Source of the DNA: Gemmatimonadota bacterium
GTDB lineage: Bacteria > Gemmatimonadota > Gemmatimonadetes > Palauibacterales > Palauibacteraceae
Length of the DNA stretch: 64,000 nt
NCBI GenBank assembly: GCA_965116475.1
Contig: OZ220691.1
Span: forward strand, 1,824,001 to 1,888,000
Reading direction: 5' to 3'
Shown here: piece by piece, positions 32,006 to 33,037 of the stretch
Layout: the number at the start of each line of letters is the position of its first letter
Position numbering within the stretch: position 1 is the first letter of the stretch
Position numbers and translations under genes: made by a program
Notes under the pieces: model-generated
Seen by the model: only the letters and a program-made list of their open reading frames with translations
What the model was told of the DNA's origin: nothing
Database searches by the model: none

Positions 32006-33037
32006 ATGCGACTGGGCGGACTGTCGAGAGCGCTGAAAGACGCGCACCCGGGATCGAGCGTCGCGCGTCGCGTCCGGCACTTCGACGGCTGGCTCGACCG
32101 GGCGGCATCGGAGACGGCGGGCGCGGGCGCTTACGACCACACGGAGACGGTCAGGGACTACTACGAACTCTGCAACGGCTTCATGGTGTACGGCTGGGGC
32201 GAATCCCTGCACTTCGCGCCCCTCAGACCCGACGAAACTCTGGAGGAGTCCAAGGTCCGCCACCAGCGGGCGATGATCTCCAGGTTGGAGGTTCAGCGGG
32301 GCATGAAGGTGGTCGACGTCGGTTGTGGAATCGGTGGCCCCATGCGCCGGGTCGTCCGCGAGGCGGGCGTCCGGGTCGTGGGAATCAACATCAACGAGGT
32401 CCAGCTGGCGGAGGCGAAGAAGTTGAACGCCGAGGCGGGGCTGGAGCACATGGCGGATTTCAGGAAGTGCAGCTTCGCGGACATGAGCGCCATCGAGGCC
32501 GACACTTTCGACGGGGGTTACGCCATAGAGTCCACGTGCCATGCGCAGGACAAGCAACGCGCCTTCGCGGAGATCTTCCGCGTGCTGAAGCCGGGCGCGC
32601 TGTTCTGGGGTCAGGAAATGTGCCTGACGGACCGATTCGATCCGCGGAACGCCCGGCACCGGACCATCAAGCGGGACCTCATGCGCGGTATCGCGCTGCA
32701 CGACATCGCCACGTTCGGGGAAGTGAATCACGCGCTCGAGGGGGCGGGATTCCAGGTCATCGAGGGGAGCGACTGGGACGTCCAGGAGGGACCCTCCACA
32801 CCCTGGTATCAACCCATGGAGAGTCGCCACGGGACGCTGGGGAACGCGCTGTACAGGCTTCCCTGGGGCCGCAGGGCGTTCATCGCGGGGGCAAAGTTGG
32901 CCGAGCTGCTGCGGCTCTTTCCGCGCGGTTCGGCGGAGGTGGTGCGACTCCTCGATCGAACCGCGGAGGCCTACGTCGCGGGCGGCAGGACGGGCATCTT
33001 CACGCCACTGTACTGTTTTCTGGCGCGCAAACCCTAA
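32006..33037 (+). CDS. Sterol 24-C-methyltransferase family protein (Erg6/SMT1-like)
   Basis: DYYELC..F.VYGWGESLHFAP, VVDVGCGIGGP, YAIESTCHA, EIFRVLKPG, TPWYQP and GGRTGIFTPLY..LARKP. Confidence 0.9.
   Translation: MRLGGLSRALKDAHPGSSVARRVRHFDGWLDRAASETAGAGAYDHTETVRDYYELCNGFMVYGWGESLHFAPLRPDETLEESKVRHQRAMISRLEVQRGMKVVDVGCGIGGPMRRVVREAGVRVVGININEVQLAEAKKLNAEAGLEHMADFRKCSFADMSAIEADTFDGGYAIESTCHAQDKQRAFAEIFRVLKPGALFWGQEMCLTDRFDPRNARHRTIKRDLMRGIALHDIATFGEVNHALEGAGFQVIEGSDWDVQEGPSTPWYQPMESRHGTLGNALYRLPWGRRAFIAGAKLAELLRLFPRGSAEVVRLLDRTAEAYVAGGRTGIFTPLYCFLARKP

Follow-up and report, generated by a model that had tools for sequence, protein, structure and literature searches.

An SMT-family methyltransferase with a changed acceptor pocket in a transferred gene module of sponge-associated bacteria

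The methyltransferase gene and its operon

We analysed a stretch of 64,000 nucleotides, here called the window, from a Gemmatimonadota bacterium of the Palauibacteraceae (assembly GCA_965116475.1, contig OZ220691.1, positions 1,824,001 to 1,888,000 of the forward strand). At positions 32006 to 33037 the window carries a gene for a methyltransferase of the sterol C-24-methyltransferase (SMT) family. This gene is the fourth of an operon which encodes an RND adaptor, an RND permease, a fusion of a GPP34 domain with a cytochrome P450 and the methyltransferase. The permease, the GPP34-P450 fusion, the SMT and a KshA-like Rieske oxygenase form a module, to which a flavoprotein is added in many versions. 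The window SMT is best described as a member of a mobile, symbiont-specific subfamily that belongs to a probable module for the tailoring and transport of host sterols. The features are as follows (SAM, S-adenosylmethionine; residues marked with a replacement are in yeast numbering).

32006..33037, plus strand: SMT-family C-methyltransferase gene, a stop-free frame of 343 amino acids, stop included in the coordinates
32180..32218, plus strand: region I, FMVYGWGESLHFA, residues 59-71; M81, V82 and L89 in yeast numbering
32309..32341, plus strand: region II, SAM-binding motif VVDVGCGIGGP, residues 102-112; D125, G127, G129 and P133 retained
32585..32629, plus strand: region IV, LKPGALFWGQEMCLT, residues 194-208; G217 retained, G218 to A, Y223 to Q, W225 to M
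32864..33034, plus strand: Sterol_MT_C domain (PF08498), residues 287-343; 55.9 bits in Pfam against a cut-off of 21.7, E = 4.6e-15
25499..26725, plus strand: RND periplasmic adaptor (HlyD family), first gene of the operon; Pfam HlyD_3 and HlyD_D23, NCBIfam RND_mfp 159.5 bits against a cut-off of 94.9
26736..29930, plus strand: RND permease (AcrB/HAE1-type); Pfam ACR_tran 527.9 bits
29937..31994, plus strand: fusion of GPP34 (N-terminal) and cytochrome P450 (C-terminal), 'GPP34_L'; Pfam GPP34 103.6 bits (residues 23-224), p450 117.1 bits (residues 255-671)
33061..34095, minus strand: KshA-like Rieske non-heme iron oxygenase; Pfam Rieske 56.5 bits, KshA_C 81.6 bits; motifs CPHLG...CPFHG and DVEHLEYTH

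We place the start of the SMT gene at 32006 and not at the upstream ATG at 31571, because the lengths of the homologues and their full-length matches agree with this choice. The 120 closest database relatives have 328-477 amino acids (117 of them 335-351) and nearly all cover the whole query. Besides the Sterol_MT_C domain the protein matches the class I methyltransferase domains Methyltransf_11, Methyltransf_25 and CMAS of Pfam, and its C-terminus reads GGRTGIFTPLYCFLARKP. An earlier reading made from the letters alone (the sequence-only reading) had reported all SMT signature regions including the C-terminal GIFTP motif, and this observation, which the SAM motif also bears out, was correct to the letter. 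Membership in the SMT family is borne out by the Sterol_MT_C domain and by 43.5% identity to a rice cycloartenol C-24-methyltransferase-like protein. A search of the PDB returned no SMT structure; the best matches there are generic methyltransferases with about 78 bits. The gene is under purifying selection, with a ratio of nonsynonymous to synonymous substitution rates (Ka/Ks) of 0.14-0.29 against 11 orthologues.

The four plus-strand genes follow each other with gaps of 10, 6 and 11 bp, the last being the distance from the stop of the P450 gene to the ATG of the SMT. The translation of the fusion contains the heme motif FAPYGLGTHKCLG, and the best solved relative of its P450 part is CYP51, a distant one with only 73 bits. 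The Rieske gene is convergent to the SMT gene and lies 23 bp from its stop. The best solved relatives of the Rieske protein are the oxygenases of 3-ketosteroid 9alpha-hydroxylase (83 bits), and it is the sole KshA_C match in the genome. An assignment of the Rieske protein as SdmA was ruled out by its score of 36.5 bits against a cut-off of 600. In an RNA library (X3) contigs span 30 of 30 bins of the region 25.0-35.0 kb, and one of 299 nt reaches across the junction of P450 and SMT gene. The pattern is, however, no different in a DNA run, and DNA carry-over is possible.

Right after the cassette, at 34375-36750 on the plus strand, lies a gene whose product begins with a signal-peptide-like stretch and matches GH116 (DUF608, 39.8 bits) and MGH1-like glycoside hydrolases weakly. 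This protein is kept after the cassette at 86-91% identity in four Palauibacter-like loci (L009, L013, L020 and L031) and is found elsewhere in the locus in other Longimicrobiales.

Residue changes and the family tree

The sequence-only reading had described region I as altered, and this holds in comparison with 78 canonical family representatives with a readable region I (fragments and proteins with an unreadable region I were excluded). The consensus of these representatives is TDFYE.GWG.SFHFA with Y81 in 90%, E82 in 86% and F89 in 96%; in the window SMT the letters are F59-M-V-Y-G-W-G-E-S-L-H-F-A71. Since Y81, E82 and F89 are so widely kept among the canonical representatives, the deviation is real and far beyond chance. 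It is, however, not special to this enzyme, as had been assumed for the M/V pair. M81 and L89 are present in 121 of 121 proteins, that is the query and its 120 best clusters (75-89% identical); among these position 82 is V, rarely I or M, and position 83 is W, Y or F. Pocket changes are found clade-wide. Positions which are at least 85% conserved in the canonical rows and replaced throughout the clade are T78N/S, Y81M, E82V, F89L, E108Q and W225M as well as an aspartate near 177 which became serine. Region IV of the clade reads KPGALFWGQEMCLT, and the alignment shows the replacements G218 to A and Y223 to Q.

The catalytic and SAM-binding core is intact. H90, D125, G127, G129, P133, G147, Q154, D189, E195 and G217 are retained in the clade, and so are G268, W286, G333, L341, G352, F357 and P359. 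From the region I motif 84GWGxxFHF91 the clade keeps G84, W85, G86, H90 and F91, but not F89. E195 of region III and G217 of region IV align to E175 and G197 of the window SMT. In the accessible text of a preprint, 25 residues including F89 are described as conserved across all functional SMTs assayed (Brown & Welander 2025, 10.64898/2025.12.19.695621). By our own mapping the window SMT matches 23 of these and departs at T78 (N) and F89 (L). H90, D125, G129, P133 and E195, which the same text cites as essential, are all present. This argues for a catalytically intact SAM-dependent C-methyltransferase of the SMT family. The intact core together with the changed acceptor pocket points to an active enzyme with a remodelled pocket and not to a variant for multiple alkylation. 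Judged by its residues, the window enzyme lacks one defining feature of functional C-24 SMTs, namely F89 of region I together with Y81 and E82. In our reading the clade is a distinct bacterial SMT subfamily whose signature is M81, V82 and L89 (region I) with Q223 and M225 (region IV).

For a family tree one representative was taken per 50%-identity cluster of about 15 billion proteins; from 124 rows 8 with more than 430 amino acids were dropped and 116 kept. In this tree, which was made by a quick search with SH-aLRT support, without bootstrap and with the root not known, a group of 16 rows is set apart from the other 100 by an SH-aLRT value of 100 and a branch of 0.79 substitutions per site. 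The group consists of the window's clade (13 rows) and three lineages (P0122, P0124 and P0127). Named anchors across the split are the rice protein, a Cladosporium ERG6, a Rhodomonas transcript and an SMT of a sponge-symbiont Acidimicrobiia. The window SMT does not group with tocopherol-type or other methyltransferases, in keeping with the family assignment made from the letters. The label 'eukaryote-type', which had also been given, finds no support in view of this separate branch and because the labelled members of the window's clade are bacterial metagenome-assembled genomes (MAGs). Identity to fungal ERG6 is 31.5% for the window SMT and 31.5-33% for the clade, compared with 38.8-42% for canonical bacterial SMTs.

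With the eukaryotic SMT1/ERG6 enzymes (yeast Erg6p, plant SMT1/SMT2) the window SMT shares the fold family, the SAM motif, H90, E195, G217 and the GIFTP motif. It differs from them in having M, V and L for Y81, E82 and F89 and Q and M for Y223 and W225, and it is bacterial, horizontally mobile and outside any sterol pathway. To the bacterial SMTs described before (Brown et al. 2023, PMC10070321; Brown & Welander 2025) it is similar in that the Pfam architecture and the type of organism are the same and some loci adjoin the same sterol clusters. Unlike those enzymes it sits on a separate branch, lacks Y81, E82, F89, Y223 and W225 and occurs mostly in genomes without a sterol pathway; the readable parts of the published assays name no product for its class.

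The module across genomes and the sterol pathway of its carriers

In a scan of the genome collection relatives turned up in at least 539 stretches, of which we analysed the 80 best loci. Their titles name 11 phyla: Gemmatimonadota (several Candidatus Palauibacter species), Acidobacteriota, Latescibacterota, Chloroflexota, Nitrospirota, Nitrospinota, Thermodesulfobacteriota, Actinomycetota, Pseudomonadota, Rhodothermota and Binatota. The partners of the SMT were counted at 50% or more identity to the window proteins, and several of the misses are short contigs.

Fused GPP34-P450: 61 of 80 loci within 10 kb of the SMT gene (60 within 5 kb, 44 within 300 bp), always fused
Rieske oxygenase: 70 of 80 loci (65 within 5 kb)
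GPP34-P450 and Rieske oxygenase both within 10 kb of the SMT gene: 55 of 80 loci
AcrB permease: 45 of 80 loci
Amine-oxidase-type flavoprotein: 34 of 80 loci, between the SMT and the Rieske gene
RND adaptor: 19 of 80 loci, the least shared

A paralogue of the GPP34-P450 fusion with 40-42% identity is found in 11 further loci of the 80. The window's genome has a flavoprotein orthologue which is 78% identical and unlinked, 730 kb away among transporter genes.

G000:C1:1125685-1126887 (6700-8055 of locus L172), minus strand: flavoprotein orthologue

The module has been transferred across phyla. When the 11 phylum labels are placed on a tree with 81 members of the clade, they require 18 changes (the minimum is 10, the mean after shuffling 42.5), and one Acidobacteriota group is nested inside the Gemmatimonadota with starred support. 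The number of synonymous substitutions per site (Ks) from the window SMT is 0.35 for an Acidobacteria copy and 0.37 for a Rhodothermales copy, 0.60-0.63 for Latescibacterota and Nitrospirales copies and 0.93-0.94 for those of Dehalococcoidia and Thermodesulfobacteriota. These values are far below the saturation expected from vertical descent and thus indicate horizontal transfer between phyla. The order of the genes in the module differs between loci, and the RND permease is 83-95% identical in loci of Gemmatimonadota, Acidobacteria and Latescibacterota. In six Acidobacteria loci (L012, L017, L018, L019, L024 and L029) permease and SMT are 86-92% identical to those of the window, but the GPP34-P450 fusion is only 59-62% identical and is placed downstream of the SMT. 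This mosaic indicates recombination inside the module.

The block also stands out in the window itself. The GC content is 0.63-0.69 from about 26.8 to 34.0 kb compared with 0.69-0.72 on both flanks. Contigs of four runs were compared over 25.0-35.0 kb. In the DNA run that covers the stretch best their summed depth is 177-1314 from 26.7 to 33.0 kb, as against about 63-117 on either side; this run may be the sample of origin and is not independent support. The raised depth indicates that many co-resident genomes share the block at 90% or more nucleotide identity. Contigs of three runs diverge just upstream of 26770, near the permease start where depth and GC content shift; the RND adaptor lies outside the block.

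As to the habitat, 16 of the 20 runs which hold part of the stretch are labelled 'sponge metagenome', and the other 4 have coded organism names; run shares under 0.2 were not used for the habitat and, apart from X20, not for the contig comparison either. A metagenome scan gave 91 relatives, and among the best 80 of these 91 the contig prefixes include LXNJ, LXNI, JGIcombinedJ30088 and Ga0209021, which belong to Petrosia, Sarcotragus and Aplysina metagenomes according to the supplement of Brown et al. (2023, PMC10070321) as far as accessible. All traceable prefixes are sponge metagenomes. The contig JGIcombinedJ30088_10000835, to which the published Aplysina aerophoba SMT '2 of 2' belongs, is not among these best 80. 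The titles of the MAGs among the related loci include Ca. Palauibacter irciniicola and Ca. Palauibacter rhopaloidicola.

The window's genome (a single contig of 3.62 Mb, 96.3% complete) has no match to SQHop_cyclase_N (PF13249) and none to squalene epoxidase (PF08491), and tblastn with the Nitrospira enzymes found no orthologue of the cyclase, CYP51 or SdmA in it. A 34-bit match to SQHop_cyclase_C (PF13243) is not a cyclase; it is a 429-amino-acid frame with prenyltransferase-like repeats and a CxxCH motif. There is, however, a second SMT gene at 2.16 Mb. It is of the canonical bacterial type with the region I FYEFGWGRSFHFA and 75% identical to the Nitrospira SMT.

12628-13740 of locus L091 (G000:C1:2154001-2173000), minus strand: canonical SMT of the second sterol-related locus
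6826-8205 of locus L091, minus strand: ERG4/ERG24-family reductase (125 bits), only 31% identical to Nitrospira ERG24 and 4.4 kb from the canonical SMT

In a scan of NCBIfam no model reached its cut-off for the window SMT, the GPP34-P450 fusion, the Rieske protein or the reductase. Near the canonical SMT we also observed a flavin reductase, an AbiE toxin-antitoxin pair and a TauD/GBBH-like dioxygenase.

The cyclase is absent from most carriers of the module. We searched 41 carrier genomes, of which the 40 others are mostly megabase-scale records, with the cyclase part of the Nitrospira epoxidase-cyclase fusion as query. Only 4 of the 41 have an orthologue (77-91% identity); 6 have only hopene-cyclase-like matches of 27-33% and 31 none, so that 37 of 41 are without a cyclase orthologue by this query. 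Orthologues of the canonical SMT (73-87% identity) are confined to the 4 cyclase-bearing genomes and the window's genome, and in 28 of the 41 the clade SMT is the sole match to the SMT family. In Nitrospirales the module directly adjoins the genes for SdmA, ERG24, CYP51 and the epoxidase/cyclase, all within 10 kb. In one Nitrospirales genome the canonical SMT (G019:C1:549039-550097) is interrupted by one in-frame TGA, which may be a broken gene or an assembly error.

It is very probable that at least one member of the clade has been assayed before. The accessible Supplementary Data 1 of Brown et al. (2023, PMC10070321) lists for the MAG 'Nitrospira sp., coral reef' gene 270 as SMT '2 of 2' with 35.6% identity to ERG6, gene 274 as SMT '1 of 2' with 38.8%, and genes 275 to 279 as sdmB, sdmA, ERG24, CYP51 and epoxidase/cyclase. 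Three Nitrospirales loci found here match this order: the clade SMT, whose region I is FMVYGWGESLHFA, the Rieske gene, about 3.2 kb, the canonical SMT, a gap of 1.1 kb, sdmA, ERG24 and CYP51. Likewise the two classes of identity to ERG6 in the supplement (35% and 39-42%) are mirrored by the window clade and the canonical enzymes. It is this recurrence of the gene order and of the two identity classes on which the identification rests. In the cluster figure of Brown et al. (2023) 'dotted' SMTs are stated to be inactive, and according to the part of the preprint at hand 7 of 11 inactive SMTs deviate at conserved residues and yet keep G84, W85, H90 and F91 (Brown & Welander 2025). This description fits the window clade.

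The fusion gene upstream of the SMT has exactly the architecture of the GPP34_L protein of sponge symbionts (Ferreira et al. 2025, PMC11706023). In the accessible parts of that study the GPP34-P450 fusion is reported as exclusive to sponge symbionts of many phyla, its proposed role is the binding of phosphatidylinositol 4-phosphate and the evasion of phagocytosis, and the flanking genes are studied for the short GPP34 form only. The words 'sterol' and 'methyltransferase' do not occur in its main text, nor does 'sterol' in the one supplement at hand. In contrast to that description, the partners to which the fusion is translationally linked here are a pump, an enzyme of the SMT family and a Rieske oxygenase of the steroid type, a setting that speaks for lipid chemistry at the membrane of the bacterium. 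Kelly et al. (2022, PMC9531527) describe, in the text accessible, transferred ERG24-CYP51-LSS clusters and an enrichment of SMTs in MAGs of Ircinia symbionts. These clusters and the window cassette are alike in their occurrence in sponge symbionts of about ten phyla, in horizontal transfer and in purifying selection. The former are, however, the core pathway for de novo synthesis, whereas the window cassette has other genes and is found mostly where the core is absent. A literature search, with most subscription journals outside its reach, found no paper linking an SMT with GPP34-P450 and none on Palauibacter and sterol.

Proposed function and alternatives

On balance we consider it probable that the module tailors and transports exogenous sterol-like lipids, most probably those of the sponge host, and that the window SMT does not serve de novo sterol synthesis. 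Because the carriers mostly cannot make sterols, host-derived sterol-like lipids are the most likely substrate. The neighbours point to steroids since the Rieske protein is nearest to KshA, the P450 nearest to CYP51 and the Nitrospirales module lies beside sterol genes. The P450, the Rieske oxygenase and the flavoprotein could oxidise or desaturate the exogenous, most probably sponge-derived, sterol-like membrane lipid. The SMT might then methylate an olefinic carbon of the oxidised product, and the RND pump could carry the substrate or the product across the envelope. The methyl acceptor would be a compound other than desmosterol or 24-methylenecholesterol and probably not an ordinary delta-24 sterol. 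The suggestion of a non-standard product in the sequence-only reading is therefore plausible, but the reason is a different one: a remodelled pocket within a host-sterol tailoring cassette instead of a variation in sterol synthesis.

Several points weigh against a tailoring of host sterols. The assignment of a probable sterol substrate comes from family and neighbours. RND pumps of this type usually export, and we found no route by which host sterols would be taken up. The Nitrospirales and one Palauibacter genome carry a complete sterol pathway besides the module, and there endogenous sterols could be the substrate. For 40 of the 41 carrier genomes completeness is not reported. The inactivity of clade members on desmosterol and 24-methylenecholesterol is quite likely but inferred from gene order and counts. 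A restriction to sponges is not proven, because scans seeded with peptide words of the query favour close relatives. Finally, the RNA-library contigs over the cassette are no proof of transcription and we do not count them as evidence.

It is also conceivable, with a low probability, that the substrate is not a sterol at all. The module would then act on some other olefinic lipid or on a secondary metabolite of host or microbial origin, such as a terpenoid, and export it in detoxification or signalling, and the SMT fold would have been recruited for another acceptor. Four aromatic or acidic pocket positions of sterol-acting SMTs are replaced, the pump is a generic HAE1-type RND protein, the P450 is only distantly CYP51-like and none of the module enzymes reaches the cut-off of an NCBIfam model. 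However, the sterol-specific C-terminal domain and E195 are retained, and the similarity of the Rieske partner to steroid 9alpha-hydroxylases and the sterol genes next to the Nitrospirales module also speak for a steroid. Moreover, the window's genome has its canonical SMT and the reductase of the ERG4/ERG24 family but no cyclase, which suggests that it handles foreign sterols.

The sequence-only reading had suggested that the enzyme may make non-standard or multiply alkylated side chains. This would mean an SMT acting on delta-24 or delta-24(28) sterols whose altered region I adds two to three carbons (24-ethyl, 24-isopropyl) or leads to unusual C-24 products. We regard this as improbable. 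Its premise is sound, as residues of region I do influence the number of methylations: it is altered by Y81F in the SMTs of yeast and soybean and by F81/F83 in one from Chlamydiae, according to the accessible preprint text (Brown & Welander 2025). Three bacterial symbiont SMTs make 24-isopropyl sterols, as the available text reports (Brown et al. 2023, PMC10070321), and the catalytic core of the window SMT is intact. Yet in the same preprint text extra methylations depend on F81 and/or F83 and in addition on position 249, where the residue should be small and preferably G, and the window SMT has M81, Y83 and I229 at the place of 249, a mapping which is tentative and relies on the constant offset between motifs and on the alignment. 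Large residues at 249 gave no sequential methylation there, and among the substitutions of Y81 in the yeast enzyme only F made 24-ethyl sterols. In addition F89, invariant in functional SMTs, is L in the window SMT, T78 is N, and the 'coral reef' SMT '2 of 2' of Brown et al. (2023), which by gene order belongs to the window clade, is probably among the inactive enzymes by the published counts. Thus the expectation of multiply alkylated side chains does not agree with the residues.

Still less probable is that the window SMT is an ordinary biosynthetic C-24 SMT of a sterol-making bacterium. Sponge symbionts do have bacterial sterol clusters with SMTs, as described in the accessible parts of two studies (Brown et al. 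2023, PMC10070321; Kelly et al. 2022, PMC9531527), and the Nitrospirales clade gene lies at most 10 kb from ERG24, CYP51 and the epoxidase-cyclase. But the window's genome has no cyclase, epoxidase, CYP51 or SdmA orthologue, most carriers have no cyclase orthologue either, and the genomes with the full pathway hold a separate canonical SMT (73-87% identical to the second SMT of the window's genome) besides the clade enzyme. That the gene codes for a catalytically dead or purely structural paralogue is very improbable: clade members were probably inactive in published lysate assays and 2 of the 25 'functional' residues deviate, but the SAM motif, H90, D189 and E195 are kept, Ka/Ks is low across phyla, and the gene has been maintained through repeated transfer and is the sole SMT-family gene of most carriers.

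A tailoring of host sterols leaves room for a more specific proposal, which is speculative and which we hold to be unlikely. The clade could be the missing non-C-24 sterol side-chain methyltransferase of sponge holobionts and might, for instance, methylate delta-25 sterols like codisterol at C-26/C-27. With the P450, the Rieske oxygenase and the flavoprotein it would turn host sterols into unconventional sponge sterols including those of the 26-methyl aplysterol type. Fossil forms of such sterols serve as animal biomarkers. If the proposal were true, part of the 'sponge biomarker' signal would come from a cassette that passes from one bacterial symbiont to another, and GPP34-P450, the 'symbiosis factor', would turn out to be a sterol enzyme. 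The enzymes for 26-methylation remain undiscovered according to the accessible text of Brown et al. (2023, PMC10070321).

Steranes with alkylated side chains serve to date the first animals, and it therefore matters which organisms and enzymes make the precursors. What is new here is a widely transferred, separate branch of SMTs defined by clear sequence signatures, which is usually the carrier's only sterol gene besides its oxygenase partners. Also new is the physical tie of this branch to the GPP34-P450 fusion, published as a hallmark of sponge symbiosis with a very different proposed role. The module offers a concrete set of enzymes for a possible remodelling of host sterols by symbionts. 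Further, counts of SMT homologues in metagenomes would overstate the capacity for C-24 alkylation.

Three other regions of the window were observed besides the cassette. From 3944 to 12379 there is a low-GC island (0.57-0.60 compared with about 0.70), probably a defence island, with an AAA ATPase beside an S8 subtilase, a ThiF-family protein and a NotI-like restriction endonuclease with a C-5 cytosine DNA methylase. On the minus strand at 36805-41342 a class III aminotransferase, an amino-acid kinase, a semialdehyde dehydrogenase and a RimK/LysX ATP-grasp protein are encoded, which resemble a LysW-type lysine or arginine pathway. At 41559-42263 on the minus strand is a gene for a protein of the TMEM164 family (174 bits), which is known mainly from eukaryotes.

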